From positions 17,940,210 through 18,004,209 of the forward strand of contig NC_134030.1 in NCBI RefSeq assembly GCF_964204645.1: a DNA stretch of 64,000 nucleotides. Direction: 5' to 3'. Made by a program: the position numbers and the translations under genes. Below the pieces are notes generated by a model. It saw only the letters and a list, made by a program, of their open reading frames with translations. It was not told the origin of the DNA and ran no database searches. Source of the DNA: Tubulanus polymorphus. Lineage: Eukaryota > Animalia > Nemertea. The stretch's first letter is position 1. The number at the start of each line of letters is the position of its first letter. Positions 1,909 through 64,000 of the stretch are shown in pieces.

Positions 1909-2528
1909 CTGATGTTATCCTTATTATAACCATTGATGAAACACTGTGAGCCCGTGTTGTGAAGATAGTATAAAATCCCTGTACTAGGAATAAAAACGTG
2001 TCCCACTGGTCACCTTCGTAAGTCTGAAGTAACACTACTTACATAATGCGGCCTTTGTTGCTCTATCATCTAAACATCGATGTCATTTATTTCAAATGGT
2101 TATAATATCGACGTATGGAATAGATTAGATAGTACATGAAACAGCTAAAATCTAAAAGGTGAAGAAAGTTCAAATTGATATATTACACCTCGGTTCAGAC
2201 AGTTGAATTTGAGCAACTTTCCTCACGTTGTACTACTGTGCCTGAATATCTAATCGGTTTCATTTGTTTTTCCCAGTATCCGTATAGGACCGGTCATTCG
2301 ACATCTGACTGTATATTTCCCCTGAAATCTAATTCAGTCACTTTATATAATAGCGAATTCGTCTCTAAGAAATGATGAACATAGCTTTCGCAAAACAAGA
2401 CTTTATTAGTATCTCTGTGAATTTCCGCAACATTTTGGTCAATAGTAATTAGAAAAGTAGGCTTTCAGGCCAGAGTACGAGAGTACTAAACACCACTCAT
2501 CACCACAAGTAATTTTTTTCCCTAATAA

Positions 2529-2703
2529 ATGGGAGACAGTGAGTTCCAACTAGAAAACAATAATGTCAATAAAAATCAATATTATTGTCCATATTGTAAA
2601 AAATACATCGATAAACCTTACATGGAAAATGTTAGAAATTATATTGATTCATTAGAAATAAAAGATACAATTGAAATTTTAGAAATATTACGTAGTAAAA
2701 TTG
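2529..2703 (+). pseudogene. 5' remnant of Maverick pPolB
   Basis: Matches 56618-56704 joined to 56996-57083; in-frame 291-bp deletion at ATAAA microhomology, then truncated. Confidence 0.9.
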
Positions 2704-2944
2704 TGACACACATAAACAGTGAGTGCGCGTAACAACAGCTGTGTGTGGATAGATCGATACAGTGAGTCTCTACTGAGAACGGTTATTAATGTGAGTGCTA
2801 TTACTGTAGTACAGTGATTGCGTGTCAACTGTACCCGGATAAATAGATGCTGTGAGGCTTGGGTGAGAACGGTTAATAGCGTGCTTGTTATATAGGGGGA
2901 AGTAATCCCCACTCATCACCACAAGTAATTTGTTTTCCTTATAA

Positions 2945-3271
2945 ATGGGAGATAGAAAAGCATTCTTAGCAACAATAAATAACAGAATAAAACCAGCAAA
3001 AAAACAATTTGAAATAAAAAAGTTAGTTGATGTTACAAAAGAAATTGAACATAAATTATTGAAATTAGAAAAGATAAAAACTAAATATGGAGAGAAAGTA
3101 TCAGCTAATTTAAGCTACTGTAATGTTAGTACATCGCGAGAATTTAAAGTGTTTTTACCCGATAAATGGGTTTCATTGAGTATGGAGGAATTGAAAGATT
3201 TAGTAGGATTTAAAATAATATATCATGGGAAAAATGAAGACGGTCATCATGATTTAGAAATTGTTGATTAA
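2945..3271 (+). CDS. Maverick hypothetical protein (108 aa)
   Basis: Intact ORF with element-like codon usage, preceded by the conserved ACTCATCACCACAAGTAA...TAAATG motif. Confidence 0.7.
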   Translation: MGDRKAFLATINNRIKPAKKQFEIKKLVDVTKEIEHKLLKLEKIKTKYGEKVSANLSYCNVSTSREFKVFLPDKWVSLSMEELKDLVGFKIIYHGKNEDGHHDLEIVD

Positions 3272-3430
3272 ATTTTTAAAAAAATAAATTAATAAAAATA
3301 ATGAATATCTAGAATCCGAAATGACTTATCTGGACAATTTAATTGCTCCACATAGATAGACAAAAGTAGTGAGATATTCAATTATTTTTTTTCATACTCA
3401 TCACCACAAGTAATTTTTTTTCCCTAATAA

Positions 3431-3935
3431 ATGGAACTAGAACAACTACAAACTATCAATATTACAAATAACACTGGTGTTATAAACATATACTACAAGA
3501 AGTGTTCTAAATGTGAATTAGATAAATTAGCTTTAATAGAATTTAGTAAGATTAACGCAATTATTCAACAAAGAAACACATTCAGAAACACTATCTAATT
3601 TGTTGGGTTGTTCAGATGAATTTCTCAAATCATGGATAATATATCAATTCGACAATAAAATGAATATAGATAATTATGGTGAATACTTTCATATTGATCA
3701 TGTGTTGCCGATTTCTAAATTTGATATGAATGATGAATATGATAAGAAGCTAATCTGGAACTGGAGAACTTTAAGACCTTTAGAAAAGAAAGAAAATATA
3801 ATTAAATCTAACAAACTAGATATGAAATTATATTTAGATCAACTGGAAAAAACAAAAAAATTTATTGAATTATGGAACAATAATCCAAATAATGAACGAT
3901 ACGTTGAGGAATTTGATATCAAGGATCCGAAATGA
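3431..3935 (+). pseudogene. HNH endonuclease of the giant-virus type (N-terminal CxxC; frameshifted or deleted near 3550)
   Basis: Start at TAAATG 3431 (KKCSKC); C-terminal LGCS..QF..NYGEYFHIDHVLPISKF..LRPLEKKENIIKSNK. Confidence 0.7.
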
Positions 3936-3972
3936 CTTATCTGGATAATTTAATTGCCGCACAGTGAGATAT

Positions 3973-4344
3973 TTAATTATTTTTTGGTTTTTTTTCTAAA
4001 ATATTAATCCATTTTTTTATTATAAATTTTGGAATTTCAGAAGTACTTTCATTTTTGATAGCAGTTGGTTCAGAATTACTAATATCATGAATTTTATTTG
4101 ATTTCTTATACCAATTACACCCAATCAAAATGAATACAATTACAAATCCAACTGTAAAATATAAATATTTATCAAATATTCTACTATCAGAAGGAGTAGA
4201 AATAACAATATTTTCACCATTTTTATTACTTATTTTTTCTTTTACAGCTTTTTTATATTCTTGTGATTTAATTCCTAATTGTCGAGACCATTCAATTTGT
4301 TTCTGAGTTCTCGGTTTTTTCTTCACTTCTTTCACCTCGCTCAT
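3973..4344 (-). CDS. Maverick small basic membrane protein
   Basis: Lys-rich N-terminus and one hydrophobic segment (LYFTVGFVIVFILIG); TAAATG start. Confidence 0.65.
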   Translation of the reverse strand: MSEVKEVKKKPRTQKQIEWSRQLGIKSQEYKKAVKEKISNKNGENIVISTPSDSRIFDKYLYFTVGFVIVFILIGCNWYKKSNKIHDISNSEPTAIKNESTSEIPKFIIKKWINILEKKPKNN

Positions 4345-4882
4345 TTATTATAGAAATATTTTTACTTTCAATATTTGAAAATGTTATAACTCCAGTTGAT
4401 AATAATGTCATAAATCCACCTAATTGAAATGATAAATATCCAATCCATTTATTTAATTCAGTCATAACTAAATAATCATTTTTTAAATCAGAATATAATC
4501 TATTTTCATCTTCAATTGGTAGTATATAATTACATAATTTACTATAACCTTTTACTACATTTTCTGATATCGCGTCATTAATTCTAGCTGTTCTCGCGGA
4601 TTCATAAATCTTAAATAATCTAATAATTTCATCTGATTTCATTGTATCTAATTCATTATAAGTTAAATTTTTACTGACAAAATTTTTACATTTTCCAGAT
4701 GCTATTAATATTTCTAATTGATGTTTACAATAAAGATAATATTCATAATTATTATTTGTTGTAACATTATTTAAAGCACCATCATCTGGAGTTAATTTTG
4801 TTTCTGTTATTCCTAAATCATCTAAAGTTTTTTCAATTGGAACATCACCATTTTTAGATTTTATTTTCTTTTCACCTCCCAT
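4292..4882 (-). CDS. Maverick hypothetical protein (196 aa)
   Basis: Intact ORF with TAAATG start and a C-terminal hydrophobic stretch, downstream of the ATPase. Confidence 0.7.
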   Translation of the reverse strand: MGGEKKIKSKNGDVPIEKTLDDLGITETKLTPDDGALNNVTTNNNYEYYLYCKHQLEILIASGKCKNFVSKNLTYNELDTMKSDEIIRLFKIYESARTARINDAISENVVKGYSKLCNYILPIEDENRLYSDLKNDYLVMTELNKWIGYLSFQLGGFMTLLSTGVITFSNIESKNISIINERGERSEEKTENSETN

Positions 4883-4913
4883 TTATATAACAAACAAATT
4901 AGTTGTGTTGTTG

Positions 4914-5165
4914 CAACTAGAATTCAACTAGAATGTAACTAGAATTCAACTAGATTAACAAGCTAGTTGAAATATTGTTGTTTTTGTTTATTTCTAGTTA
5001 CATTCTAGTTGATTTTTGTTTCAACTACTAACAACTAGAATTCAACTAGAATGTAACTAGAATTAAACTAGATTAACAAGCTAGTTAAAATATTGTTAAA
5101 TCTATTTGATTTTTGTTACAACTACTAATAACCAGAATTCAACTAGATTAACAAGCTAGTTGAAT
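4914..5165. repeat. Intergenic array of ~11-bp AACTAGAATTC/AACTAGAATGT units in direct and inverted orientation
   Basis: Repeated caactagaattcaactagaatgtaactagaattcaactagattaacaagctagtt blocks; inverted copy at ~4991-5014. Confidence 0.85.
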
Positions 5166-5774
5166 TTAAATAAATTCATATTTAAATGGGTGTTGTAATC
5201 TAAATAGTAATTTTGATCTTTTAATATTTTTCAACTTATCCATATATTCATTATGTAAATCATGTGGAATAATATCATTTTCCTCAAGTGCATTTTTCAT
5301 CGATTTTCTATCTTTATTGTAGAATAAAACTAGAAATCTAATGTTTTCTCTAAAGTCTTTAACAATTGAATTATATTTTTGATTTAAAACCCAAGTTGTT
5401 ATCCCAAAATGTCTGCCAGAAAAAGCTAAATAACATAACTCACTTTCTCTAACTTTTGAATCATGTAGATTAGCACAATCATCTATAATGAATAATGTAT
5501 TTGATCCTTTATAAATATCAATTGCTATTTTTATACAATTATCTAAATTTTCTTTTACTGTTTTAGGATCTAATATAATAAATTTATTATTTCTAGTAAT
5601 ATTTCTATCATAAGTTTGATTAAATTCATATGTTGGACAAAATAATACTATATTATCAAAATAGTTTTCGTAAACAGTTTCTAATAAATTTAATATAAAA
5701 TAAGTTTTTCCACAATTTGTTACACCAGAAATTAACATATTATGAGGCTCAAATATGAATAATTCCTTATTCAT
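5166..5774 (-). CDS. A32/FtsK-HerA family genome-packaging ATPase
   Basis: Walker A GVTNCGKT, Walker B LFIIDD, SGRHFGIT..LNQ motif typical of Polinton and poxvirus A32 ATPases. Confidence 0.92.
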   Translation of the reverse strand: MNKELFIFEPHNMLISGVTNCGKTYFILNLLETVYENYFDNIVLFCPTYEFNQTYDRNITRNNKFIILDPKTVKENLDNCIKIAIDIYKGSNTLFIIDDCANLHDSKVRESELCYLAFSGRHFGITTWVLNQKYNSIVKDFRENIRFLVLFYNKDRKSMKNALEENDIIPHDLHNEYMDKLKNIKRSKLLFRLQHPFKYEFI

Positions 5775-6860
5775 TTATATATTTTTAATTTTACTTGATA
5801 ATATCCATTCATTGAATTTATCTGGCCATCCAACCCATTTTACTAAAGAATATTTTTTTCTTTTAACAGTTTTTGTTTTTAGTACTTTTTCAATTTTATA
5901 TTCTTGTTCTAGATTTTCAGTAGTTAAACTTAATTCTTCTTCGTAAAAGTAGCCATCAACTTCTTCACCATCTAAATCTTCTAATTTATAGACATATGGT
6001 TTTGTTGTTATTACCTTTTTTATTTTATATATTTCTCTAGTAAAATTTCGATCGTATCCTTTGTCAAATATCTTTTTATACTTAGAAATTCTAACATTTT
6101 GACCAACTTTAAATTTAGGTTCACCAAAATCATCTACAAGAAATGCTCCATATAAATTATTCCAAACAATTTCAGCATTTTCAGGTTTTCTAGCATCAAT
6201 AGGTTTCATTCCAATAGAAGAATGATAAGAATTATTATATCCTTCTATAAATTTTGGTAAAACATCAATCCATTTATAAGTATTATTTGCTGTGAAATAT
6301 TTTGATATTCTTGTTCTCAATGTTCTATTAAATCGTTCAACAACTGCTGCTTTTTTATTAGATTTTGTCGAAAAATATTTAATATTATGAAAATCCAAAA
6401 GTCCATGAACTAATGAATTATCAAATTCTTTTCCATCATCAAATTGTATTTTTTCTGGTTTTAGTTTACCACCTGAAAGAAATTTTCTTAAAACATGTGA
6501 TGTTTGTGCAGCATCTTTTCTATAAAGTGGGAAGCTCCATACATAACGACTAAAAATATCAATTATATTCAATATCCACCAATAATCATTATTATCTTTT
6601 TTAAGATTTTTCATATCAATTAAATCTCCTTGCCACTGTTGATCTACATAACTTACCATAGTTTTACGAGTTTTATATTTTCTAACAATTTTTTTATGTG
6701 TTGTATATGTTGGTTGTTCTAACATAAATTCATTTATATCTTTGTATTTAACTAAATTTTGTGGGATTATCTTATCTAATTTATCTTGTTTTACTTTACG
6801 CCATATATTTTTAGTAGAAGAATAAGCAACCGAACTCTCAGGGTTCTTCTTATATTGCCT
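5775..6860 (-). CDS. Maverick retroviral-like (rve) integrase with C-terminal chromodomain; native start lost
   Basis: DDE core WQGDLID / IQFDDGKEF / VVERFNRTL; chromodomain YKIEKVL..LVKWVGWPDKFNEWI. The frame stays open into host-like DNA up to 6992. Confidence 0.92.
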   Translation of the reverse strand, partial: RQYKKNPESSVAYSSTKNIWRKVKQDKLDKIIPQNLVKYKDINEFMLEQPTYTTHKKIVRKYKTRKTMVSYVDQQWQGDLIDMKNLKKDNNDYWWILNIIDIFSRYVWSFPLYRKDAAQTSHVLRKFLSGGKLKPEKIQFDDGKEFDNSLVHGLLDFHNIKYFSTKSNKKAAVVERFNRTLRTRISKYFTANNTYKWIDVLPKFIEGYNNSYHSSIGMKPIDARKPENAEIVWNNLYGAFLVDDFGEPKFKVGQNVRISKYKKIFDKGYDRNFTREIYKIKKVITTKPYVYKLEDLDGEEVDGYFYEEELSLTTENLEQEYKIEKVLKTKTVKRKKYSLVKWVGWPDKFNEWILSSKIKNI

Positions 6861-7230
6861 AAAATTAGTGTATAGCGAGTTATCATTCAACTTAAAATCT
6901 ATCTCTTGTACGTGCTGGTCTCGGAGTACACATTTTAATTTCTTTGAGAGTGTCATAGAGTTAACCAGACTCAAACCGGTACGTAGCGCCGCCTGGATAT
7001 TTTGCGTTTAACTAAAGCGTATTCTGTTTCGCACATAAACCATGATATACCGGGTACTGTGAATATAACAAAAAGATGAATAGTTTATCTGCAGTTGGGT
7101 TTCTAGTTCGTTTATTTTAGCCTCGAGGCACTCCTTTTCTTTCTGAATAAAAACGAAATGATTGTTTTTAGTTCCATGTAGTTCAAATATATCAGATAAT
7201 TAAGCCTACACATTCGGTTTAAATGCCTAC

Positions 7231-44634: not shown

Positions 44635-45339
44635 GTCATAACCGTGATTTGCTGGATTATAATCTGTTAAACTGTTTGTAGACTTTACTTCTAGTTACAT
44701 GTGTGACACTGCATTATCTACTGTTTTAAGTAAAAGTGATTATGCTAGCTTAGATTTTATGGTATTGATTACGGTTATAAATGCACTAAAATGTTTTTAC
44801 AATTCATTGATGGACGACTAAGTATTATGGAAACGAAACTTAGGATAATCTACTGTTTAACATTAACTTTTTTTTTATTGATTGCCTAGGGATGACTAAG
44901 CAATCTGTTTAAAATACTACCTATTGTGTGCTAGCACATCAAAGTATGAATGTTAAGGTCATTTTATGAAGACAAAGTTATATGCCTGACACATTTTTTA
45001 ATGTTTATTTCCCCACAGTGGTTGAATATAACAATAAAATTTATTGCCAGTTAATAGAAATATAATCGCTTTCTCTTGATGTTTGTCGGCATTCTGGTTG
45101 AGACTGTTTGTTCTTCAAGAGAAACCATTAAGTTAAACAGAACAACTCAAAACTAAAGTCAGTGTTGATCATGAGTTGGATATGCTTAGACTTGATTGTG
45201 TTAATAGATTAGATTAGCAGAATTAGATGCCAATTGGTCAATTTAACCCACCACTATTGATTGATAGTAGTTGAATAAACACTCTAATCCGTGTAGACTG
45301 TACATAATTGAAGAAGTCCCACAATTTGAATTTTAAATA

Positions 45340-45760
45340 ATAGAATTTATTAAAACGAGACCACAACGTTTTGGCTGTTGATTAACAGCCATCATCAGGT
45401 GGAATGACCAGAAATACAAGTAACCTAAAGTATATAAACTCGCAGGATGAAAAACAGAAGCTAATGTGTCAGAACTAAAGAAACAGACAGCAATAAAAAC
45501 ATCCAAGGGTACCAGTAGGACTTCTTCAATTAACCATTGATCGAGTTTAGATACCATTCAAATATGTTTCGATAAGAACAACATGTAAAGGCTTTGCCCA
45601 AGACAACTGCCTTCAATAAATAGATATTTCCACCAAGAGACGTATTCTAACATTGTTGAATATGTGTCCGCCAGCAAGTCTACAAGAATAAAGATCTAAT
45701 AAGAAGTATCTTGGAAAATATGAATTTATTCTGTCTTTATCTTCCAATATATACATACAG
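45340..45760 (-). mobile_element. Penelope 3'-end fragment with hammerhead (45361-45402) nested between the two transposon genes
   Basis: CCAC-CTGATGA-T-GGCTGTT aatc AACAGCC-AAAAC-GTT-GTGG (GAAA mutated to AAAA), followed by AATAAA. Confidence 0.55.
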
Positions 45761-45793
45761 TACTAACATGTATACAAAATACATTTTACACAT

Positions 45794-48700
45794 TTATCTA
45801 AACTGAGATAATAGCCAATCATACATGTCGCAAGCTTCGATCGAGGTTGAAGGAAATCTTCCAAAATTGCTTTGCGCGAGAATTCCATCACATAACGCGG
45901 AAAATTGTGGATCACACCCTCGAGTTTGATTTGGGATTTTGCAAAAATCCCGGCGTATTTGATCCAGTATTCCCGTATCAATGGCCACTTTGTAATCATC
46001 TGTTCCTAGAATACAAATTCAGATAAACATACTGGTCATTATACGAGAACCATAAGTACAATGACCATATCAAAGACAACAATGCTATAAATGCGTATGG
46101 TCCAGGGGTGGATTTAGAGGGACGGAAGCGGCGTACGCCCCGCCCGCCCCCTTGATATCACCGAGATACGTTTTGAAAAAGACCCCAGGTGTGGATTTTG
46201 TCCTCATGCCTGAAAATCCTGTATTTCAGAATTTTGTAGGAGAACGGCCTCCAGACCCCCTCGGGGGATTTAGCCGCATGCCTCCCGCCTCCCTTATCCA
46301 AAATCCTGGATCCTACCCTAGTTTCCACATAATAATAAATTCCCTCACTAGAGATATATATTCAAACGTTTTATGTAGGCAAATGATAAATGGTATAATT
46401 TGTGACATTATTTTAATATAACTCACCAAACACCTCTGGAGTGAAGTACAATAAATCAGGTTTACCACTCGGTACTTCCATGTTACTCTGTGGACGAATT
46501 ACATGTGTGTTCCATTCCCTTTGGAAGTCAAGCAAGTCGTTGGTGATCAAATAAAAAAAACAGTATCGTAGCGTGTCACTGAAAATGGTAATACTTGAAA
46601 ATATATCCATATATCATATTAATGATACAACTAGGGGACCAGGGACACCACGCCCACTTGGAAAGTGGTTTGAAATGCTCAACAATCTGAAAATTTCAAT
46701 ATTCAATGGACCTAGTGAACATATCAAGAAAAGAATGACCTTGAAACTGACCACAATCATTCAAAATGTCGCAAGCTACAATTTTGCAATTGATTGTGGT
46801 TACAAAATATGCCTAGGGACAAATACAATATGAAAATACTAAGTTAATCGGCTATTCAACGCCCCTGGTGACCATAATACAAAAACCAATGACCTTGAAA
46901 TTCAACACAATCATAGAATGAGTCCGGAAAACCATTTTCTATCTACAAATGAGGACTGTCGACACTAAGATGGCTGTCAATTGCGTCAGGCTTGACTGAT
47001 CGAACAATTTGTTTAAGAGCCCTTCTCAAAATATACCCATCACGAATTTCAATGAAAAATGGCAAACCATTCAGGTCTCTGAATTCTGGTCAAAAATGAA
47101 CTATTTGGGCATAAAAAAGGTCACAGGACGGCCATATTGTGTCCGATCGACCCAATTTTTCTTATGCTGATGCACCATAGGGGGATACAAACATATCTGA
47201 AAGATCAAGATTGAAGTGTCTTTAAAATTGCCCTTAAAAACTCCAAAAATGTGTAAGTACGATTTTGGCGAACAAAAATAGCCGCGAGTCGGCCATCTTG
47301 AATCTGACCGGGCCAGTTTTTGGGCTGAAGATGTGTTTAGGGGAGATACATGTATAAATCAAAGATCAAGACAATCCATGCATTGAAGCTGGATTCCATC
47401 TACGGATGAAAAGTGAACGCAATAGCCCGCTGGGACTAAAGTCCCAAGTGGGCTAAAAACAAACATTCAGTGATTAAGTCTTACATATGAATAGGATCAG
47501 CATTCGAAAACAAACCACGATCCGCCATGTCTTTGAACAGATTCATCCAATATTGGCCAAGTGAATGTCTCAGTGTTCGCCACCACCTCTCTATTCGCTG
47601 AAGGAAAATAACATTTTCTATTTATAGTTTGTGTGCGCACGTACCCTTTTTGGTGTTTTTGCTGATGTAAATAATGTACATATTTACAGGGAACTAATAA
47701 AATGACAAAACAAATCAAATAGGTATGCAAAAGCTTCAGGGGCGGATCCAGGGCATATATGGAGGGGTAGCACCTGATGAAAGGGCGATAATTATTGCAA
47801 AGAGGCAATATCCACTGGTAGTGAGCGCCGAAGACGCAAAGCCAAAGGGGGTTTCCTCCCTCTGAAAATAAGCCCCTGCAGATGCAATTTCAAGCATTTG
47901 AGCTTCTTTCAAACAAAGAAAAACATATTAGGGGACATATTAGGCCATTGGACGTCCTCAGGTGGTACCAAATTTATGATGGGAAAGGTTTTTGGGGCCC
48001 AACTGAAAGTCAAGCGGGTAGCACGTGCCCCAGGTGCTACCTCATGGATCCGCGCCTGAGCTTTGGTTATAAATTTATTTTAGCTAGCAGTGTTTTTAAG
48101 GTTGGTTATTACGGATACATGTCAACAATTAAATATATGTAATCAGAAAGTGATGATTGAATCTTTTTCATTGTAAAAGAGTGAAATTTTTATCGTCAAC
48201 GAACCTGATTACTAGTAGATCTTCCGATTCCTACACTGGCTTCATTTGTATGGTCCGTAAGGAAAGCTTCTTGAATGGATGCCAAAATACCATTTTCGGT
48301 CCCCGCATCAATCCTGACGCAACGAGGTACAGCTAAAAAAATTCAAATAATAAAAAATACATGAATACCCAATTGTTCTTGACATGTATATATGGCATTG
48401 CATTGTAATAGTGAAGTCATTGTATTTCTCAAAGCAGTCGTTGTAAGGCAATAACAATTTAATATTTTTCATGCATTATTTCGATTAGAGTATCGAAAAT
48501 ATTGGAAAATTGAGATGATATTTTCAGGGTTGTTGCATAATGACAAAATACCTACCTTTTATTTGCTCTATAAAATCGACAAAATACCAGCCAATAACAG
48601 CAGGGTCATTATTTGTATTGCTTACGTTGAGCCAAAGAATCCTCCTAGAATAACTATACATTGGAGCAATAACTTAGACATACACACACACACACACACA

Positions 48701-49620
48701 CATATCAGATCAAATAATAGAACAATCCAGGCCAGCATATGGAAAAACAACCGATTACCTACCCATCTATGGCTCCATGTATAGCAAAGCCATACGGCTT
48801 AAGCTTATCATGCCCATCAACATGTATCAAATAATTAGGACCTTTGGCTGAATAATTACGGCGACGGAGGATACCACTAGCTCTTTCCCTGACTCCTTCA
48901 GGATCAATCAAGCGCTGGACACCCGAATCAACTGTCCTGAAAATAATTCATCAATGCTGGGTTAAAATATAGGTTAACAGTCGATGTATCACTCCTGATA
49001 ATTACGGACCATCATCGTACCTAGGAACACGAATTCCATAGCGATTCCTCAATCGACTAGTCATGGCTCTGTAGCCCAAACAGCTACCACTGCCACGTAC
49101 CTCTTCCTATAATTAAAGAAACCTATATTACTGGCAGTAATTAACTTGTCAGAATGATATCTGAATCTCCATTCATACATTCTTGATATTACGATGACAC
49201 ATTTTGATATTAATGAAACACTAGAAATTAAATATGGATAGGTCTCACCGTATAATTACCTCTACTACACTGACAACTTCATGTAATTGATAGTTACATC
49301 TCCTTTTCAATCCCAGTTTGTTGAGTCGCCGTTTTAATGTACGCTCACTGCAAAGAGAGCAAGGTTTTGAGAACGATTCTGCGAATATTTTAGCAAAAAT
49401 GCATAATTAAGCCTAATCGATCTCTCAGGATGTAACATTTATTTAGGGGCTACATAACCTCTTACCTCATTGCCAATCCAAAATAAGTCTCGAGTGAGTG
49501 GCAAATTTCCTTATTAGTAAATCCGTCGTTGAACAATTGTGTGATGATATTGTCCTCTATAAAGAAATATAACCAGTTGTCAGAGTGGATTAGAATACCA
49601 AGAATTAATATTTTGATGAA
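45794..49620 (-). CDS. Multi-exon IS3EU DDE transposase (integrase-like core)
   Basis: Exons encode SERTLKRRL, LGYRAM, RRRNYSAKGPNYLIHVDGHDKLKPYGFAIHGAIDG, VRIDAGTEN, STSNQ/RIERWW and WNTHVIR. 5' end approximate. Confidence 0.85.
46629..47459. mobile_element. Non-autonomous Helentron-associated (HINE/DINE-like) element in a transposase intron; fragments at 44132-44260 and in each kringle unit
   Basis: AACTAG end, sub-terminal inverted GCCCACTTGG/CCAAGTGGGC, terminal palindrome tagcccgctgggactaaagtcccaagtgggcta, A/T-run flanks. Confidence 0.6.
47738..48058. mobile_element. hAT-like MITE (CAGGGGCGGATCC..GGATCCGCGCCTG); similar elements at 46103-46320 and 53748-54034
   Basis: Short TIRs with CAG-type termini. 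Confidence 0.5.
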
Positions 49621-50169
49621 ATTTCGAAATATCAGTATTGACAATCAGACAATTTCCATACCTGAGCTGACATCATCATCCTGTCCTTCTTCTTGTAGAA
49701 AACACGACATGATCTACCGCGCGAGGGGTTTATTTGTGGGATTTGGGAGGCCGTAGCGGCGTAGGAACCCTTATAGCGCGTCGTCAATATCACACGTATC
49801 AATGGGGCAGTCAGACGTTCAACTGAACTGACCTTATTGTATTGTATTAAAACTACACGCGCACGCCCTACTCTCTTCTCAACCGTGAATATAACCACTA
49901 TTCTTGACGCACTGGCTACCGCATCAAAACGTCAATTTTTACAAATATTTAATTTGAATTTGTTTACTTTTAACTGAAGGCAGTGCTACTGGCTTTCGTA
50001 AAAAATCAGAAAATCACCGATAAAGGAAGTTTTATTGCGTATAAACGTAATTCTGAAAATTAAATTAATTAGAAAATAATTGGTATAATAATACAACGTT
50101 TTAAGGCCGTAATTAGTATCACGAGATGAACCCTGGCGCCACCATCCGACCAAAATTACCGCGCATGAA

Positions 50170-51484
50170 CGAAGAAACGAAGTTCGTTTTTGCGCGGCGC
50201 AAAAACGAGAAATCACCGCGCTAAAACGCGCCAAAACGGGCGCTAAAACGAACGTTCGTTTCTGCGCTCGTTTTGGCGCGTTTCTGCGCGGTAAATTTCG
50301 TTTTTGCGCCCCGCAAAAACGGACGCAGAAACGAAGTTCGTTTTTGCGGGGCGCAAAAACGAGAAATCACCGCGCTAAAACGCGCCAAAACGGGCGCTAA
50401 AACGAAGGTTCGTTTCTGCGCTCGTTTTGGCGCGTTTCTGCGCGGTAAATTTCGTTTTGGCGCCCCGCAAAAACGGACGCAGAAACGAAGTTCGTTTTTG
50501 CGGGGCGCAAAAACGAGAAATCACCGCGCTAAAACGCGCCAAAACGGGCGCTAAAACGAACGTTCGTTTCTGCGCTCGTTTTGGCGCGTTTCTGCGCGGT
50601 AAATTTCGTTTTTGCGCCCCGCAAAAACGGACGCAGAAACGAAGTTCGTTTTTGCGGGGCGCAAAAACGAGAAATCACCGCGCTAAAACGCGCCAAAACG
50701 GGCGCTAAAACGAAGGTTCGTTTCTGCGCTCGTTTTGGCGCGTTTCTGCGCGGTAAATTTCGTTTTGGCGCCCCGCAAAAACGGACGCAGAAACGAAGTT
50801 CGTTTTTGCGGGGCGCAAAAACGAGAAATCACCGCGCTAAAACGCGCCAAAACGGGCGCTAAAACGAAGGTTCGTTTCTGCGCTCGTTTTGGCGCGTTTC
50901 TGCGCGGTAAATTTCGTTTTGGCGCCCCGCAAAAACGGACGCAGAAACGAAGTTCGTTTTTGCGGGGCGCAAAAACGAGAAATCACCGCGCTAAAACGCG
51001 CCAAAATGGGCGCTAAAACGAAGGTTCGTTTCTGCGCTCGTTTTGGCGCGTTTCTGCGCGGTAAATTTCGTTTTGGCGCCCCGCAAAAACGGACGCAGAA
51101 ACGAAGTTCGTTTTTGCGGGGCGCAAAAACGAGAAATCACCGCGCTAAAACGCGCCAAAACGGGCGCTAAAACGAAGGTTCGTTTCTGCGCTCGTTTTGG
51201 CGCGTTTCTGCGCGGTAAATTTCGTTTTTGCGCGGCGCAAAAACGGACGCAGAAACGAACTTCGTTTTTGCGCCGCGCAAAAACGAGAAATCACCGCGCA
51301 GAAACGCGCCAAAACGGGCGCTAAAACGAAATTTCGTTTCTGCGCTCGTTTTGGCGCGTTTTAGCGCGGTAAATTTCGTTTTTGCGCCGCGCAGAAACGG
51401 ACGCAGAAACGAAGCAATATATTTTTTGCATGGTATATTGCACGAAATTTTTTTTTTTTAACTTGGCCCTAATCAGCCACCATA
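50170..51484 (-). repeat. Right TIR built from a 154-bp tandem array
   Basis: Reverse complement of the left array. Confidence 0.95.
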
Positions 51485-54400: not shown

Positions 54401-56553
54401 GTTGATTCTACTTGCTTAAAGGGCACATGTACAATTAATAGAATATCATGTCATACTTTTTCTATGAAGTAATATGTTCACAAGTTATAATATGCTACTG
54501 ATTATCATTTCAGTCATTTCCTGAAATACACTTATAAATCGGCAGTTTGAGCAGGTGCTCACTGTATCTAGATGTGTGCAGGTACGTGTTCCTGACGTCA
54601 TCTCTATTGAAAGCTTACTGTTTACTCAGTTTCTATTCATTTAAAAGGGGTATTTAAGATTTTTTAAATTAATGATTTCTAAAGTATTGTTGGTGCCATC
54701 GTATATGATATGATAAACATATATGTTAGTGGGTGCATCATATAGCCGTGATATATAAGAGGGAACAAATTATGACTATCAATTGGATACGTATATATCA
54801 ATTGTATACGCTAGAGAGCGCATACGTGCTTAGGTTTATCACCGACATACCGTGAAAAAAGCAACAGTGAGTTTGGTGAACTGTGTAAACAAAGTGAAGA
54901 GTAAATGAACGACGCATTTATAAGAAATCATTCCTTTGCGAAATAAGCATTGCGTTTATCAATCACGAAAAGTACAATTCATTGGCCATGTGGCCAAAAG
55001 AAAAAACGTTTGAGACGCTGAAGCGAGTTTCGGTGGGCTGCAATCAAACCCACGCAAGTATGGCGCCAGAGAGGCGATCCGATGGTTATTGGACAGTGTC
55101 TGTCATCGAGAGGATTTCCGAGGTTGCGCCAGACGTGATGACACGATCAACTGGGACTATCGTAGCTACGTCACCAAGCAATGATGCTGACCTACTATTT
55201 TGATATCGGAAAAGCTGACCGTGTGAAGAAATTGATATCTGTTATCACTCATCACCGCTCAATGAGATACGCGTGAGAATCCCACCTGTTGCTGACGCAC
55301 TGTTGCCGGGGCACCGCTCCAGGGGAAATTAGTACGTATGATCACAAATGTGAAAATGCAGTGTTAAGTATTATAGCAATACAACACGACAAGTTTATCG
55401 CTTTTCTAGCAATCAGTAAATGCTCCCTATTGTGCGTACTGATCACGCCGCTTAAAGCGTATGTATGTTTCAATGCGCGAAATTAAATAGTTCCAATTGT
55501 CACCTAATTTTACTTTGCTTTCCGGAAGAAATTCAGATGTGTCGTTACTTTTACGCAAAGAGTGTAAACATGTAACAATTAATTATTGGAAATAATACGA
55601 TAGTTTTGTGCTTGAAGATAAGATACTGCCCGCGCGCATCAATCGACCGCGCTTTACTACAAGTATTCAAATAGGCCTGCAACTGCTGTATCGAATCGAT
55701 GATGAGTGTTGCATTGTATTTATCTCTCTCTAAATCGCAAATTTTTCTCTGGCTTTGCGCATAGTTTATTTCAAGTAGTGAGAAAAAAATGGTACGGTTA
55801 GCTTTGGTGCTACTGATGTCGATTTCTATTCTTTTATCTCATCATTCCAGAGAGCAGTGGAAATATGTAGAGATTTAGGGGGGATGAGGGTTATTGAGGC
55901 TTGGGTCACATAATTTTTCTGAGATCGGTAGATCACATTTTGCGGCCGTAAAAGCGCTGCGAACCGTAAAAGCGTTCATTGTTTGTGTTTTCCCGATCTC
56001 CGTTTACCTTACGTTGTACATGTTTTATATATAAGTGTAACACGGAAAATCGCAATGCCGGGTATTGATGTGCAGTCGCGGCCATGGCCATGTTTCAGAA
56101 GGTACCGGTATAATACCACGGAATATAAATGTTCTAAACTCGAAAGGGGGGACACCTTTAGATGTATATGAATCCAATGGGTAATATGTAAATAGTATGT
56201 TCGGTAAATAATGTTTGTTATGTTTTAAGATACGTTTTCATTTACCTCCTAAATGAATGCTGTTTTTCCTCCTCCATATACCATAGAAGTGATTGGAGTG
56301 TAATGAATATTCGTATTCGTATTAAAAGTATTGAGAGCAATCTGATCGAATAGTATTAAAACATGTGTGTAACTGAAGCTTTTATATATATATATATACG
56401 TAAAAACAAGAATTTATTTATTGAATCTAAAAAATTTTTATTATCCGTTCACCACGTTTGAGTGTGGTTATCGTTCTATCCTGAAGTGAAGCTACAGCTG
56501 ACAGTAATTAGAATATCAGGCTTTCATACCAGAGTACGAGAGTACTAAACACC

Positions 56554-56620
56554 ACTCATCACCACAAGTAATTTTTTTTTCCTACTCATCACCACAAGTA
56601 ATTTTTTTCCCTAATAAATG
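56554..56620 (+). promoter_or_regulatory. Conserved Maverick promoter-like motif ACTCATCACCACAAGTAA-T-rich-TAAATG (partly tandem-duplicated here); also at 2495-2531, 2911-2947, 3396-3433 (+) and 62978-63013 (-)
   Basis: Near-identical ~37-bp sequence ending at the ATG of several unrelated ORFs. Confidence 0.8.
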
Positions 56621-59600
56621 GGAGAGAGTGAGTTCCAACTAGAAAACAATAATGTCAATAAAAATCAATATTATTGTCAATATTGTAAAAAATACATCGA
56701 TAAATCTAATAAAACTAAACATGAAAAATCTTCAAATCATATACAAAATTTAATAGATTTTGAAACTCCAGAAAATTCCAATGAAAGAAAAGAACGATTA
56801 GAAAATATGAATGTGGATGAAATAAAATGTGAAGTTTGTAATGAATTTATAGTAAAAAGGAATTATAATAGACATCTCGAATCACAAAAACATTATAAAA
56901 ATTTAAATAAAAATGTTTTAGGATTAGAATATTTTGATAATAAACCTCAACAAGTAAAAGAATCAACTTCAAAAACAAAATCCATTTCAAATAAACCTTA
57001 CATGGAAAATGTTAGAAATTATATTGATTCACTAGAAATAAAAGATACAATTGAAATCTTAGAAACATTACATAGTAAAATTGGTCCTGCAGCAATTATA
57101 TTTAGATTTTTTAAAGGTACAACAATAGAAGATTATAGTAAATTTAATGAAATAATAGAAAAAATACTAGATTTGATAACAGATGTTGAATATCCAAAAA
57201 TTAGTATCTCTGGGAAAGTAAGTTTTATTAAGTCAGAAGAAAAAATGGATTATAATATTCAAACACACTCTGAAGAAATAATTTCAAAAACACAAATAAA
57301 AGAGAAGTTAGAAAAAATATTAAATGAATTTAAACGTCATATTGAAGAAAGATATTTTGAGGTTTCTGGTTTAACATTGAATGAAATTATATATTTAGAT
57401 TTAAATGTTTATAATACAAAAAGAAATAAAACATCAAAAAGTAATAAAATGTTTAAAAATGATTCAAACTTTACAACAGAAAAAGATATGAAAGCATCAA
57501 GTTATATTAAATTACCATTTAAAACTAATGCAGTAATTAATATACAGAATGATGATAATAAATGTTTTCTGTGGGCGATTATAAGTTGTTTACACCCAAC
57601 AGAAGATATGACGCATAGTTTTAGAATAACAAATTACCGGAAATATGAAACATTATATAAAATTGATCAATATCCAGTAACTATAAAAATGATTCCTAAA
57701 ATAGAAAAAGTTAATAATTTAAAAATAAATGTATTCGAATTAATGCAATTACCAAAGACAAAAGGTGAAAATATTAAAGATTATACATTGGAAGCTTTAT
57801 ATTTAACAGAATATTATGATGATGAAAATGCTATAGATTTGTTATATTACAAAAAAGATGAAAATGAACATTATATGTGGTTAAAACAAATTGATTTATT
57901 CTTTAGAACAGAAAGTGATCATCATAATAAAATTTATCTATGTAGAAAATGTTTATCTAAATTTATGATTGAGAATACATTATTAAAACATAAAGAATTA
58001 TGTGATAATAAAGATTTTTGTAAATTAATAATGCCAACAGAAAAAGATTATAAATTGAAATTTACTAATCATAAATTTAAAAATATTGTTCCATTTGTAA
58101 TTTATGGGGATTTTGAATCGTTGAATAAAGAATTAACTGATCAAGATAGAAAAGAAATATATAACAAAAAGCAATTATTAAAATCAATGGATAAAGGAAG
58201 TGAATTAAATGAAGACATAATACAAGACCCACCAATTATAAATACAATTAAAAAAGTTCATCAAAGAGCTGCTGCTTATGGAATTTATATAAAATCAAAT
58301 TATCCCGAATTATATGAAAGTCAATATATTTCTTTTAGAGGTGAAAATGTAGTTAATGATTTTTGTGATAAAATTATTGAATTAGAAAGTGATTTTGCAA
58401 AATTATTAAACAAAAATAAAAGAATAGTTATGACAAAAGAAGATGAAATTGATTTTAATTATGCAACTCATTGTTGTTATTGTGAAAAACGTTTTTATTC
58501 ATTTGATAAAAGAGTTAGAGATCATGATCATTTAAATTCAAAATATCGTGGAGCTGCTCATGAAGATTGCAATTTACAAGCTAAAAAAGTAAATTTCGTA
58601 CCAATATTATTTCATAATTTATCAGGCTATGATACCCATCTATTTATAAAACAATTATCGGGAAAATTGGGCGCAATTAATCAAGAAATAGAAGAATATA
58701 ATGCTATGAATGAAGCAAATGTAAGAAAATATGATTTTAAACTATTAGCTAAAACATCTGAAAATTATATTTCATTTCAATTTGGTTGCATTAGATTTTT
58801 AGATTCTTATAGATTTCTAGCAAGTTCATTAGATAATTTATCAAAATCATTTTATAATGATTTCAAAATAATGATTTTATTATAACTCGATATTATTATC
58901 CAAATGAACAAGATTTTAAATTATTGAGATATAAAGGCGCAATTCCTTATTCATTTTATAAAACACATGATGATTTTAATATAACAGAATTATGAAGATC
59001 AATTTTATGATAAATTAAAAGAGGAGTATGTGAAAGACGAAGTTTTTGATAGAACATTAAATATTTGGAACCATTTTAAGATGAAAAATCATGGCGAATT
59101 AGTTGATTTATATTTAAAATCAGATGTTATGATATTGGCTGACATATTTGAAAAGTTTAGAGAAGTTAATCTAAACCATTTTAATGTTGATCCTTGTTAT
59201 TGCTACTCTAGTCCTGGTTTAACCTGGCAATGTGGTTTAAAATATACAAATGTAGAATTAGATTTATTAAAAGAACCAGATATGGTTTTATTATTTGAAA
59301 AATCAATTAGAGGTGGAATTAGTGGTGTTATGGGAGATAGGTATTTTAAAGCAAATGATGAATATAAATTATTATATATTGACGCCAATAATTTATATGG
59401 TTGGGCAATGATGCAACCTCAACCATATAAAAATTTTATATTAACAGAAGTTGAAAATGATGATAAAACTGATTGGGAAAGCGCAATTGCGAGTTTAAAA
59501 GACGAAGCACCAATTGGTTATTTCTTTGTAGTTGATTTAGAATATCCTGAAAATATAAAGTTTAAAACAAGAAACTTACCTTATTGCCCAGAACATTTAA

Positions 59601-61694
59601 CTGTAGATGATAGTTATTTAAGTGAATACCAGAAGAAAATAAAACCGAAAGATCATGTTTTTACAGAAAAATTAATACTTACTCAAAATAATAAATACAA
59701 TTATATTGTTCATTATAGAATGTTAAAATTTTATCTAAAACAAGGAATGAAATTAAAGAAAGTACATAGATATATTGAATTTAATCAATCAAAGTGGTTA
59801 GAAAAATATATAGATTTCAATACTCAACAGAGAACAATATCAAAAAATGATTTTGAAAAAGATTACTTTAAACTGATGAATAATGCGTTCTATGGCAAGA
59901 CTTGTGAAAACATAAGAAATAGAAATGATATTGAGTTAGTTAGTAATGGTAAAAGATTAAGGCATTTACAATCGTATCCGAAATTTATAGGCAACAGAAT
60001 ATTTGATGAAAATTTAGCAGCAGTTAAAATGAGGAGAACTTCAATGAAGTTCAATAAACCTATATTTATTGGTGCATCAGTTCTAGAAATTTCAAAATTA
60101 TTAATGTATCAATTTTACTATAACATATTACAACCCCATTTTGGAGAAAAAAATATAGAAATATTATATTTTGATTCTGTAACAGCTGACACCCCAATAT
60201 TATTAAAATGTAATAATAAAATATTGGTAAGAAGAATTTCAGAAATAATTCCAAAACAAAATGAATGTTATATTTCATATGGTGAAAAAGAATTAATACA
60301 AATAAATGGATTAATGGATGTTTGGACGAGAAATGGATGGAAAAAATTAAATAAAATTATCAGACATAAAACAAATAAGAAAATCTATAGAGTTAGAACT
60401 AAATTAGGATTTGTAGATGTTACAGAAGATCATAGTTTAATTAAACAAAATGGTGATGAAATAAAACCAACTGATATAAAAATTGGAGATGAATTATTAC
60501 ATAAAAGATTTTACCCAAGAATGAATCATATGTCATTTGATGATAATTGATAATATTTATAATATAGAACCCGAAACATTGGAAGAAAAAGAATATTTTA
60601 TCAAAGGATTTTTCATGGGTGATGGTTCAGCAGGTGTGTATAATTATGTTAGTGGAACTAAATATTGTTGGTATTTATGCAATCAAGACTTAAAATTATT
60701 AGAAAGAATTAAGAAATTCTGTGAAGAAGTTTATCCAAATAAAACTTTTAAAATCATGGATGTTATGAAATCATCAGCAGTTTATAGAATACATGTGAAT
60801 AATCCTAAAGATTTTGCTATAAAATATAATAACGAATTCTATATTCATGCAATAGTGAAAAGTAATACTTCAACTAAAGAAAAGATAGTTCCAGATTATG
60901 TATTAAATGCAAAAAATAATTTAAAAAAATGGTTCTTCATTGGATTCTACGCAGCCGATGGTACTAAAAGTTTCAAAAACCGCAAAACAATATCTTTAGC
61001 TCAAAAAGGAAAAGTTGCTATATCAGGATTAAATATATTATGCAATTCATTAGGTTTTAATATGAATATTGGATTGATTAAATCTAAACCAAATTGCTTT
61101 AATATAAGCCACACAGAAAATGAGATAACTGAAGAAGTTAAAGATTTATTTGAAATATATAACCCAACAGATTATGTTTATGATTTATCAACTGAAGATG
61201 GTACATTTAACTGTGGATTTCCATTAATAGCCAAAAATACTGACGCCTACATACTAAAAATAAAAACTGATAACATAACAAAAGACTTAAAAACATTAAA
61301 ACATCATTTTGATTTTAGTAATTACCCTAAAGATCATGAATTGTTTAGTAATGATAATAAAAAGATTCCTGGTAAGTTTAAAGATGAATTAGGAGGTGAT
61401 GAAATGATTGAATTTGTTGGGATAAGAAGTAAAATGTATAGTTACAGAACAAAAGATCATGAAGCTAAAAAGTTAAAAGGAATAACAAAACATGTGGTTG
61501 ATAAACATATAGAATTTCAAGATTATATAAAGTGTTTATATAAATCAATTGTAATGAAACACAAAATGAATTGTTTAAGATCAGAAGATCATGAGATGTA
61601 CATTAATGAAGTTGAAAAAACTAGTTTAAATCCATTTGATGATAAAAGGCATATTTTAGATGATGGTATAAAAACATTACCTTATGGTTATTAA
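56618..61694 (+). pseudogene. polB: Protein-primed family B DNA polymerase with intein; disrupted at ~58860-59030 and ~60545
   Basis: N-terminal Zn fingers, ExoI YGDFES, endonuclease-VII-like insert RDHDH..YRGAAH..CNL, ExoII FHNLSGYD, FLDSYRF, motif A YIDANNLYG, motif B KLMNNAFYGK, split motif C YFD^TD, C-terminal DDKR. Confidence 0.95.
60176..61238 (+). mobile_element. Intein (~355 aa) with LAGLIDADG homing endonuclease in PolB motif C
   Basis: Block A SVTADTPILL, block B VDVTEDHSL, LAGLIDADG helices FIKGFFMGDG and FFIGFYAADG, block F YVYDLSTE, block G LIAKN|T. Confidence 0.93.
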
Positions 61695-62980
61695 AACATA
61701 AAATCAATATCATCAAATTCGAAATCATTATTGTCTTCTTCATTTTCATGTTCTTCTTCCATTCCATTTTTCTCATTTAAATAAAGTTCTATCTTGTTCC
61801 ACATTTCATCTCGCTCTCTTTGTTTCTTTTTGTTTGTTAATTCATCAAATGGAATTATAATATCTAGGTTTAAATAATTTACAATCTTATTCAAAAAGAA
61901 TTCATAATTTATTGAATCTGTTATTCTATTTTCCAAATGATACATTAATATTTGTTTAAATATTTTTTTTATATTTTCCATATCTTCTTCTGTTAATTTA
62001 GGTTTTTCATAATAATCGTTAAATAATAAATATAAATACATTTTCTTTTGTTTTGTGTTAAATGTTGGTGGAATAATTGTTTTTATAATATCTTTTTTAG
62101 TTATTTCACCATTTTTATTTTCTATTATTTTCATTTTTTCAAGCCATTGCATATATTCTGGTGTATGATCTTCTATAGAAAATATTTTAAAAATTTCATC
62201 AAGATAATTTAATTTTGGATCTATAAGAAAATTTCTAATTTTTTCTTCATCCCATAAATTCTTTTGCCATCCACAATCAACACAAAATAACACAGTACCT
62301 TCTTGTCTTAAGGTCGCATAAATACATTGTGGGCATTTTTGTTTATAATTTATTGGTAATAGATTTTCATTAAGCTCTTGGTATTTTCTTACGTTTTCTT
62401 TATGTTTTACTGTTCTATTATGTAGATTTGAATTACTTGTTGTAATAATCAATTTACAATATTTACAATAATATGTTTTTCTTGTTAATTCATTATATTG
62501 TTTTTCTAACTTTTCAACTGTTTCTTCATTATCTGGTAACGTTTTCTCATATTTTATTTTTTCTAATAAATTATTTTTTCTTTCATTGAATTCAGTTTCA
62601 AATTTATTAGAAATTTTATCTATGTGTGCTTTACTAAATTGATGATTCTCCCAATCTTCTATATTGTCAGGGCTATATTTTACTTGACAAGGCTCACAGA
62701 AATTATTCTTTACATTATTCTTGTTATAAAATAAAAAAGGTCTTTTCCAAATAACTTCAGGTTCAACTTCAGCAGAATTATTATCAACATTAGCTGTTGC
62801 GCCATTAATTCTACACTTCTCTGAATGTTTTTTAACATAATTTCTTGAGAATAATTGATTACATTTTGGGCAGTTTATTTTAGGGGGTTTATAATTTTCA
62901 TCATGTTTTTTCATATGTCGAGCCTTATTACTTTTTCTTAGAAGTTCACCACAAATTTCACATGCTATCTTCTCGTCCAT
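61691..62980 (-). CDS. Multi-zinc-finger protein with a C-terminal poxvirus/NCLDV VLTF3 (A2L)-like late transcription factor domain
   Basis: C2H2-type fingers, zinc ribbon CPQC..EGTVLFCVDCG, then PKLTEEDMENIKKIF..SINYEFFLNKIVNYL..KKQRERDEMWNKI, resembling the VLTF3 C-terminus. Confidence 0.65.
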   Translation of the reverse strand: MDEKIACEICGELLRKSNKARHMKKHDENYKPPKINCPKCNQLFSRNYVKKHSEKCRINGATANVDNNSAEVEPEVIWKRPFLFYNKNNVKNNFCEPCQVKYSPDNIEDWENHQFSKAHIDKISNKFETEFNERKNNLLEKIKYEKTLPDNEETVEKLEKQYNELTRKTYYCKYCKLIITTSNSNLHNRTVKHKENVRKYQELNENLLPINYKQKCPQCIYATLRQEGTVLFCVDCGWQKNLWDEEKIRNFLIDPKLNYLDEIFKIFSIEDHTPEYMQWLEKMKIIENKNGEITKKDIIKTIIPPTFNTKQKKMYLYLLFNDYYEKPKLTEEDMENIKKIFKQILMYHLENRITDSINYEFFLNKIVNYLNLDIIIPFDELTNKKKQRERDEMWNKIELYLNEKNGMEEEHENEEDNNDFEFDDIDFMF

Positions 62981-63036
62981 TTATTAAGGAAAAAAATTAC
63001 TTGTGGTGATGAGGTAATTTTTTTATGTTATAAATA

Positions 63037-63834
63037 ATGGTAGAATTAAAAGAATACAGAATATTTGTTGATTCTAGAAAACTTATAAATTATAAATCTC
63101 ATAATTTATTAGTACAATTAGATAGAGAATTTAAGAATTGTGTAGATTTAAAATTAGTAAATATAAGTTTATGTAATTCTTTTTATAATATATCGGATAA
63201 AACTGATGAACATAGAAGCCTTCTTATTTTTGATAAACTTGAAAAAAAATGGATTCAACTTATGCTTACACCAGGATTATATAATTTAGAAACATTAGCG
63301 CAAGAAATTAATAGAAAAGCTCGGATTAGATTAGGTAATGGTAATTCCAAATTTAATATTAAATTCATAAAAAGTGAGAGCTCTAATAAAATTAAAATAA
63401 AGCTTGATGATGAACTTATTAAACTTGATAAATCTGATCCATTGATGACAAGAAGACATACTTACACGGTAAAAAAACCTATAGCTAAACTATTAGGAAT
63501 TACTCCAAATCAATTTGGTGGAAACAAACACGGTAACTCAAATATAATACCTTTTACACACTTTTATATTTATTGCAATTTAATCGATCCTACAAAAACA
63601 TTCGAAGCAACTAAAGATACAACATGTAATTCTGGTTTACTAAACATTTTACCATTGAAGAATGTTAAACAATTTGGAACGCAAATAAATTATAATTTAA
63701 CAGAATGTGATTTTAAACCTTGCATTCCTAAATTTAATAATTTTAGATTAGAAATTAGAAATCATAATGGATACTTAATTGATTTAAATAACTTTCCTGT
63801 GATATATGAATTAGTTATAAGATGTAAAGAGTAA
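63037..63834 (+). CDS. Minor capsid (penton-like, single jelly-roll) protein
   Basis: IFVDSR, NSFYNI, PGLYNL, KLLG, FYIYCNLI, LEIRNHNGYLIDLN pattern of Polinton and virophage pentons. Confidence 0.75.
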   Translation: MVELKEYRIFVDSRKLINYKSHNLLVQLDREFKNCVDLKLVNISLCNSFYNISDKTDEHRSLLIFDKLEKKWIQLMLTPGLYNLETLAQEINRKARIRLGNGNSKFNIKFIKSESSNKIKIKLDDELIKLDKSDPLMTRRHTYTVKKPIAKLLGITPNQFGGNKHGNSNIIPFTHFYIYCNLIDPTKTFEATKDTTCNSGLLNILPLKNVKQFGTQINYNLTECDFKPCIPKFNNFRLEIRNHNGYLIDLNNFPVIYELVIRCKE

Positions 63835-63850
63835 TTTTTCACCTATAAAA

Positions 63851-64000
63851 ATGAATATAACTGTTGGACCGAGTATATGTTTTGGGTTTGATTTTAAACG
63901 TGAGAAAGAAATGAAATTTAACATTAATGATGTAATAACACATATCAAAAATGTTGTATTTTCTAATGAAACAACATTTGAGTATGAAACAACAATAGAT
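63851..64000 (+). CDS. 5' end of the next Maverick ORF (truncated by the window)
   Basis: Open frame MNITVGPSICFG... to the window end, preceded by GAGTAA-N16-ATG. Confidence 0.6.
   Translation, partial: MNITVGPSICFGFDFKREKEMKFNINDVITHIKNVVFSNETTFEYETTID

Follow-up and report, generated by a model that had tools for sequence, protein, structure and literature searches.

An old and probably still mobile intein lineage of Polinton polymerases in an animal genome

The window, that is, the whole 64,000-nucleotide stretch of Tubulanus polymorphus DNA analysed here, holds two copies of one Maverick/Polinton family. One of them lies at 56503..64000 on the forward strand and runs off the window. Its left terminus is likely the 5′-AG at 56503, because homology with the other copy begins there and the flanks differ; GC content is down to 22–25% from about 56500, and read depth is up about 2-fold at 56505–56805. 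Just outside this end, at 56200–56500, there is a short palindromic high-copy repeat, with a depth of about 1100 and an opposite-strand joint at 56401/56438. The element codes for a protein-primed family B DNA polymerase (PolB; 56618..61694, forward strand) with N-terminal zinc fingers, exonuclease motifs, motifs A and B, a split motif C, and KxY. The N-extein of this polymerase is 59% identical to P0001, and pieces of the window polymerase are 48% alike to P0036; both relatives match PF03175 (P0001 at 62 bits), a profile that gives no match on the window pieces themselves. A zinc-finger ORF of 429 aa (61691..62980, reverse strand; zf-U1, 27.4 bits) is convergent with the polymerase gene, and an ORF of 265 aa (63037..63834, forward strand) likely codes for a minor capsid (penton) protein. 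The latter assignment is a lead only, drawn from Atlas look-alikes scoring 0.97–0.98 in clusters of Preplasmiviricota and Nucleocytoviricota (recognition 2222, under the 2300 mark), one of which is named Sputnik minor capsid V18/19 (26% of members). A major capsid protein and a cysteine protease, as expected of such an element, would be encoded beyond the end of the window.

The second copy (2444..6905) is internally deleted and lacks the intein region. It is linked to the first by its terminus (5′-AG), the start of PolB, and the start motif, and its flanks are different. A rve-chromo integrase (5775–7007) and an A32 packaging ATPase (5166–5774), both on the reverse strand, belong to this copy; neither is found in the 56503–64000 copy, which leaves the window. 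Nested 11-bp and ~100-bp repeats (4914–5186) separate the ATPase gene from the next one. Among the natural gene starts of the two copies, 8 of 10 read TAAATG, compared with 28 of 491 ATGs overall. Most of these starts are preceded by an AGTAA/T-run motif, and CATCACCACAAGTAA occurs 6 times, against 0.12 expected. Starts of this kind resemble the late initiator of poxvirus late genes; by analogy, they may be a hint that a large DNA virus transcribes the element, which would weakly fit contact with such a virus. Two rhodopsin-family GPCR genes and a HECT gene, also present in the window, suggest that its DNA comes from an animal. The spliced HECT-domain gene lies in the ~11.5 kb between two 1.3-kb arms (37390–38709 and 50165–51484) that are 98% complementary and made of 154-bp tandem units, with 73-bp arrays outside; arms and enclosed gene (37390–51484) likely form a large DNA transposon.

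Motif C of the forward-strand polymerase is split (YFD|TD) by a Hint/LAGLIDADG intein encoded at 60176..61238 on the same strand, that is, a Hint splicing domain with an embedded two-motif LAGLIDADG nuclease at the pol-c site. The N-terminal junction (60152–60214) translates as NIEILYFD|SVTADTPILLKCN, with Ser1 at 60176, and at the C-terminal junction FPLIAKN runs up to 61238 and is followed by TDA. The boundaries given in the earlier note, from Ser1 at 60176 to the Asn that ends at 61238 with Thr next, are therefore exact. The N-terminal Hint part (60176..60541, forward strand; TIGR01445) contains Ser1, block A, and the motif VTEDH, which we take to be block B, and is 67% identical to the P0001 intein. 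The remainder (60552..61238, forward strand; PF14528), with 61% identity to P0001, comprises the nuclease and the C-terminal Hint part, from VYDL (presumably block F) to FPLIAKN. Both LAGLIDADG motifs, GFFMGDG near 60606 and GFYAADG within 60924–61070, have acidic residues and are kept in six of six intact inteins aligned. This alignment with six intact relatives places VTEDH, both nuclease motifs, VYDL, the Lys-Asn end, and Thr+1 in the window sequence, and so bears out the TxxH block B, the two LAGLIDADG motifs, and the terminal residues given in the earlier note. The splice residues, S...N|T, are those of class 1. The penultimate residue is Lys rather than His; in class 1 inteins a penultimate His is common and not obligatory. 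Lys is also found at this position in the Mimivirus record and many giant-virus-type rows, and His in P0036, P0002, and P0050. Excision of the intein in silico leaves YFD-TD at motif C, in agreement with the claim that its removal restores YFDTD, and the four closest intein-less relatives (73–81% identity) read YFDTDSY.

The insertion is in frame in intact relatives; the window copy itself is dead, with one frameshift inside the intein, near 60545 as previously noted, and two more upstream in the polymerase, near 58850 and 58985, that the earlier note had missed. A Hint profile and a LAGLIDADG profile both score above cut-off on the window intein, so that the absence of such matches, named in the earlier note as a refutation, does not apply: TIGR01445 intein_Nterm at 34.5 bits (cut-off 24.5) and LAGLIDADG_3 (PF14528) at 32.6 bits (cut-off 22.5). 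Pfam Intein_splicing (PF14890) reaches 18.2 bits on a 124-aa window piece, below its cut-off of 35.8; it is also below cut-off on P0001 and P0006, and above it on the intact relative P0036 (37.7 bits). The predicted structure of the intact P0001 intein (pLDDT 73.9, from an alignment of 5) has homing-endonuclease inteins as its best fold matches, namely TliVMA (E 7e-14), PI-PkoII, PI-PfuI, and PI-SceI. A chance motif and a mini-intein were considered and rejected, as was a Hedgehog-type Hint, given the presence of LAGLIDADG and the pol-c kin.

The same intein, at the same site, is carried by ten other protein-primed polymerases, that is, nine distinct protein rows and locus L081. Searches with the intein gave 16 matches in one case and 570 in another (120 listed), and nearly all the other listed matches are RNA-primed PF00136 polymerases, including those of Mimivirus and ChoanoV1. 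A single-protein scan of viral contigs gave no relatives among 30 stretches, and alignment scans gave one Polinton-type locus (L081) among 189 loci. No protein-primed host appeared in the best 150 of 3285 matches of a 50%-cluster search in which one member per cluster is visible. Phage records contained no match to the C-part of the intein and two partial Hint matches to the N-part. Giant-virus-type intein polymerases (L161–L163, P0108) also occur in bins labelled Bacteroides, Saccharimonadales, and Heimdallarchaeaceae, likely through mis-binning.

Most close relatives of the host polymerase are empty: among the 120 closest by extein, 5 have the intein, 104 lack it, and 11 were not classed. 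Full and empty alleles occur side by side within families. The P0036 cluster numbers 136 proteins, found on contigs of as much as 1 Mb. Of the 15 that are listed, 7 carry the intein and are intact, 6 lack it, and 2 are fragments that give no information. In this family the exteins of copies with and without the intein are 97–98% identical; those of P0023 and P0026 are 99.2% identical. Between the window copy and P0001, intein and extein are 63% and 60% identical, and in the main Polinton group as a whole the paired values are 63/60, 51/47, 48/48, 52/42, and 43/51%. Because intein and extein have diverged to similar degrees, and because the GC and GC3 of the window intein match those of the element, the intein is regarded as an old resident of Polintons. 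The pair of P0006 and the window copy departs from this pattern, with 51% identity in the intein and 25% in the extein, which suggests, at the level of sequence, a second jump of the intein between polymerase groups. P0006 represents a distant group of protein-primed PolBs and carries, next to its intein, an insert that we assume from its motif to be VSR-like.

Full and empty alleles were also surveyed in reads, as had been proposed, and both are found in T. polymorphus. Four of the ten listed runs were examined; no RNA run was listed as containing the stretch. The stretch was found in four runs of one study, and the second study contributed a raw whole-genome run under the same species label (1934 Mb read). 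In this latter run, 82 raw reads with 51 different starts pass directly from 60175 to 61248 and so skip the intein; empty alleles thus exist as DNA in the species. The 36 joint reads whose middle is shown read Thr-Asp-Ser, and 4 of the 9 bases after the site differ from the window. Raw-read depth is about 420 on either flank of the intein and 179–250 within it; depth also falls to 200–295 at 61923–62825, outside the intein, and hence the share of full copies, roughly half, is only a rough figure. Of 212 reads across the intein frameshift, 130 have a length there that differs from the window's; the lesion is thus absent from most copies. For a genome of 0.1–1 Gb, a depth near 400 would correspond to tens of copies or more. 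Element, intein, and flank are present in runs of both studies, with reads 85–100% alike, as a diverged multicopy family gives. In run X1 the summed contig depth over 55000–64000 is ~50x higher in the element than in the flank, a ratio of contig depths and not a copy number, compared with ~2x in the raw reads of X5.

In the P0036 family, the differences between full and empty alleles are piled at the insertion site: when 7 full copies are compared with 7 empty ones, every one of the 10 fixed differences falls between −6 and +44, within 51 of 1191 residues (random-placement p 2e-12, an overstated value, because the sites are linked and perhaps reflect one event), and the empty copies have three different motif C variants. 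Such clustering fits co-conversion of the flanks or escape of the empty alleles, as far as sequences can tell. In the P0003 family, by contrast, full and empty alleles do not differ around the site. An extein tree of 40 rows, made up of every one of the 12 full rows and a selection of 28 empty ones, requires 11 changes of intein state, at least 9 of these being forced by starred branches; the number is no smaller than with shuffled labels. For the main Polinton group the intein tree and the extein tree are largely concordant, which vertical descent with losses would produce as well. Among empty copies, the motif C variants DCD, YFD-TDA, YGD-TDA, and YTD-CDS are candidate escape forms. DCD replaces DTD in 43 of 104 empty alleles (P0305–P0422; 46 with Cys if three variants are counted), and these DCD alleles, which share a branch with intein-bearing copies, are possibly resistant to homing.

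Intein trees, built apart from extein trees as the earlier note had proposed, place the 11 Polinton inteins in one clade, with support 99 in FastTree (234 rows) and 100/100 in a mixture-model tree of 50 chosen rows. X stands at the breaks of two of the inteins used, those of the window and L081, and 10 near-duplicate rows were removed. In the mixture tree the window intein is sister to P0001 (100/94), then to P0006 (99/96); this tree does not resolve the base of the pol-c inteins, and an AU test (p 0.22) does not force P0006 into its nested position. A further tree (LG+G4, bootstrap unsettled) was outgrouped with 16 archaeal pol-c inteins (17 tried) and included 32 giant-virus-type and 9 Polinton rows, where giant-virus-type is a label given here and the rows named as such are only Mimivirus, ChoanoV1, and seven IMG/VR contigs. 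The Polinton rows nest inside the giant-virus-type rows, and their sister (99/95) is a group of 9 rows including ChoanoV1 and five GVMAG contigs. When the giant-virus-type inteins are instead held as a clade without the Polinton ones, which makes the two sisters, AU tests give p of 0.070 and 0.060 and do not reject this position. Identity to giant-virus inteins is 42–43% in the intein and 20–27% in the exteins. An intein at D|T of PolB motif C that is kin to other inteins of that site belongs to the pol-c allele, and the description of this one as a Mimivirus-type pol-c intein in a Maverick protein-primed PolB in animal DNA stands, the giant-virus-type inteins being its nearest non-Polinton kin. 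As for the proposed transfer from a giant virus to a Polinton, its direction is favoured by the best trees and not proven, because the AU tests leave the sister position standing; co-infection would be the route.

The explanation that we hold as probable is that the window contains a decayed copy of a full-length motif C intein of Polinton protein-primed polymerases, which is predicted to splice in intact copies, likely entered once from a giant-virus polymerase, and likely persists by homing. The lineage is old and probably still mobile. An intact precursor would splice by the class 1 route, through Ser1, the Thr and His of block B, the Asp of block F, the terminal Asn, and Thr+1. Splicing would rejoin D-T-D, and the polymerase would work only afterwards. 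To judge from the allele patterns, sister elements that share a nucleus or virus factory with an intein-bearing copy would have their empty motif C alleles cut by the LAGLIDADG domain, and the intein, along with part of its flanks, would be copied into the cut allele during repair. The initial step would have been an illegitimate jump from a giant-virus polymerase within a shared cell. A bolder version makes the intein a gene drive among Mavericks in animal germ lines, of giant-virus origin, jumping between distant Polinton polymerases and evaded by empty copies through changes in motif C; we hold it tentatively, at slightly less than an even chance.

Should the intein be real and splicing but immobile, one old gain followed by vertical inheritance would suffice, and the empty alleles would result from repeated loss or ordinary recombination. 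This would agree with the concordance of the intein and extein trees in the main Polinton group, with the similar identities (63/60, 51/47, and 48/48%), and with the rarity of the intein (5 of 109 classed close relatives). However, none of the six intact inteins aligned has lost either LAGLIDADG motif, and precise loss would leave no differences at the site, yet those of the P0036 family cluster there, and in T. polymorphus too there are differences beside the joint (4 of 9 bases in the 36 reads shown). Together with the P0006 intein, which is 51% alike where its extein is 25% alike, this makes immobility unlikely. A donor other than a giant virus, whether the two groups are sisters, a cellular (Pol delta) intein was the source, or the transfer went from Polinton to giant virus, we rate as similarly improbable. 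One would invoke for it the AU values of 0.070 and 0.060, the inteins known from Anaeramoeba DNA polymerases alpha, delta, and epsilon (PMC10710043), and P0079, an occasional sister that takes this place in the quick tree and has a weak Pol-delta zinc-finger match. Against it, the best trees put the Polinton clade inside the giant-virus-type rows, and diversity is far greater on the giant-virus side, which accounts for 540 of 595 candidate stretches in viral contigs and spans several sites and genes, compared with one site and one clade in Polintons.

Two further readings have very little probability. The earlier note envisaged that the intein reached this animal through one event. A recent transfer particular to its Maverick would explain why only 5 of 109 classed relatives have the intein and why the four closest polymerases are empty, but as a one-off from giant viruses it is refuted by the same-clade inteins of ten other Polinton polymerases. 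Such an event is contradicted by the age and spread of the clade, which extends over several Polinton lineages, and by the parallel divergence from P0001 (63% and 60%); moreover, the nearest giant-virus inteins are only 42–43% identical, and GC and GC3 match the element. A recent re-invasion of the window's Maverick family from another Polinton is possible. It is just as improbable that the element lies outside animal chromosomes, in a co-sequenced virus or symbiont or in a chimeric contig. No listed read-assembly piece covers the whole stretch, which would leave room for a chimera; against this, two copies share a terminus within different flanks in one window with rhodopsin-family GPCR and HECT genes, the copy is decayed by three frameshifts, and element, intein, and flank are all found, in reads 85–100% alike, in runs that come from two studies with the same species label.

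As an old and probably mobile lineage, this intein has several consequences. Because it blocks the active site, Mavericks that carry it could spread only if animal cells allow protein splicing, and full and empty copies within single genomes make homing and escape directly testable. Protein-primed polymerases are now among the hosts of pol-c inteins. The jump would have crossed polymerases with little sequence likeness, for which Ogata et al. (2005, PMC549080) held plain homing implausible. The intein may also serve as a marker for the question of whether animal Mavericks meet giant viruses. If the gene-drive reading is true, this would be the first case of animal nuclear genomes harbouring a functional intein lineage, and a sign that these Mavericks share cells with giant viruses.

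Surveys of eukaryotic inteins (Green et al. 2018, PMC5784728; PMC10710043) include those of large DNA viruses beside those of fungi, algae, and protists, and large DNA viruses have been proposed there as intein carriers. In the available text of these two surveys there is no animal nuclear intein or Polinton host, and the main text of PMC10710043 contains none of the words animal, metazoa, or Polinton. According to a 2021 review (PMC8529194), metazoan genomes have no inteins. The statement that inteins are essentially unknown from animal nuclear genes thus agrees with the literature found, and the present case is a counter-example to that absence, with the qualification that its host is an endogenous virus-like gene. 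The word intein is absent from the accessible text of PMC8502044, PMC11296320, 10.64898/2026.10.13.758929, and 10.64898/2026.06.19.733378, and in that of PMC12220804, PMC3671162, and PMC13768754 inteins are mentioned only in general terms. No published intein in a Polinton, Maverick, or adintovirus polymerase was found in the texts accessible; an earlier record could exist in supplements, Repbase, InBase, or subscription papers.

Several known systems resemble the one described here. Iridoviruses are viruses of animals. Fourteen inteins are listed for them (PMC5784728; PMC10710043), and these, like the nuclear inteins of fungi and protists (Prp8, VMA1; Anaeramoeba), are full-length homing inteins in eukaryotic cells; unlike the fungal and protist ones, the window intein interrupts an endogenous virus-like gene rather than one of the host's own. 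Inserts of HNH and VSR nucleases have been described in Polinton pPolB2 (Jeong et al. 2023, 10.1101/2023.08.22.554363), and nuclease inserts in polinton polymerases have been suggested to be "intein invasions" (Krupovic et al. 2024, PMC11071308, where the work cited for them is taken to be that of Jeong et al.). They share with the present case a nuclease domain within an animal Polinton polymerase and signs of horizontal transfer. However, they are described as bare nuclease domains, in a main text that mentions neither intein nor LAGLIDADG, whereas here a complete Hint domain splits the catalytic motif, and splicing would therefore be required for the polymerase. Archaeal PolB pol-c inteins (site III; the split intein of Nanoarchaeum NEQ068) occupy the same site, at 16 archaeal loci, and PI-PkoII and NEQ068 are the best PDB sequence matches, but they are only about 22–30% alike over long stretches and form the outgroup. 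The closest parallel is with the PolB inteins of Mimivirus, a pol-c allele (Ogata et al. 2005, PMC549080), and of related Nucleocytoviricota such as ChoanoV1. These also lie at D|T of motif C, have Ser1, Asn, and Thr+1, about 350 aa, and LAGLIDADG, and are 42–43% identical to the window intein; the Mimivirus record even has the Lys before the last Asn. In contrast, the window host is the protein-primed PolB of an integrating element, 20–27% alike to those polymerases, and the intein is present in many copies in an animal genome, in full and empty alleles. Hence, this is a known type of allele, the pol-c intein, in a new kind of host, the protein-primed polymerase of Polintons, in an animal genome and several related lineages.
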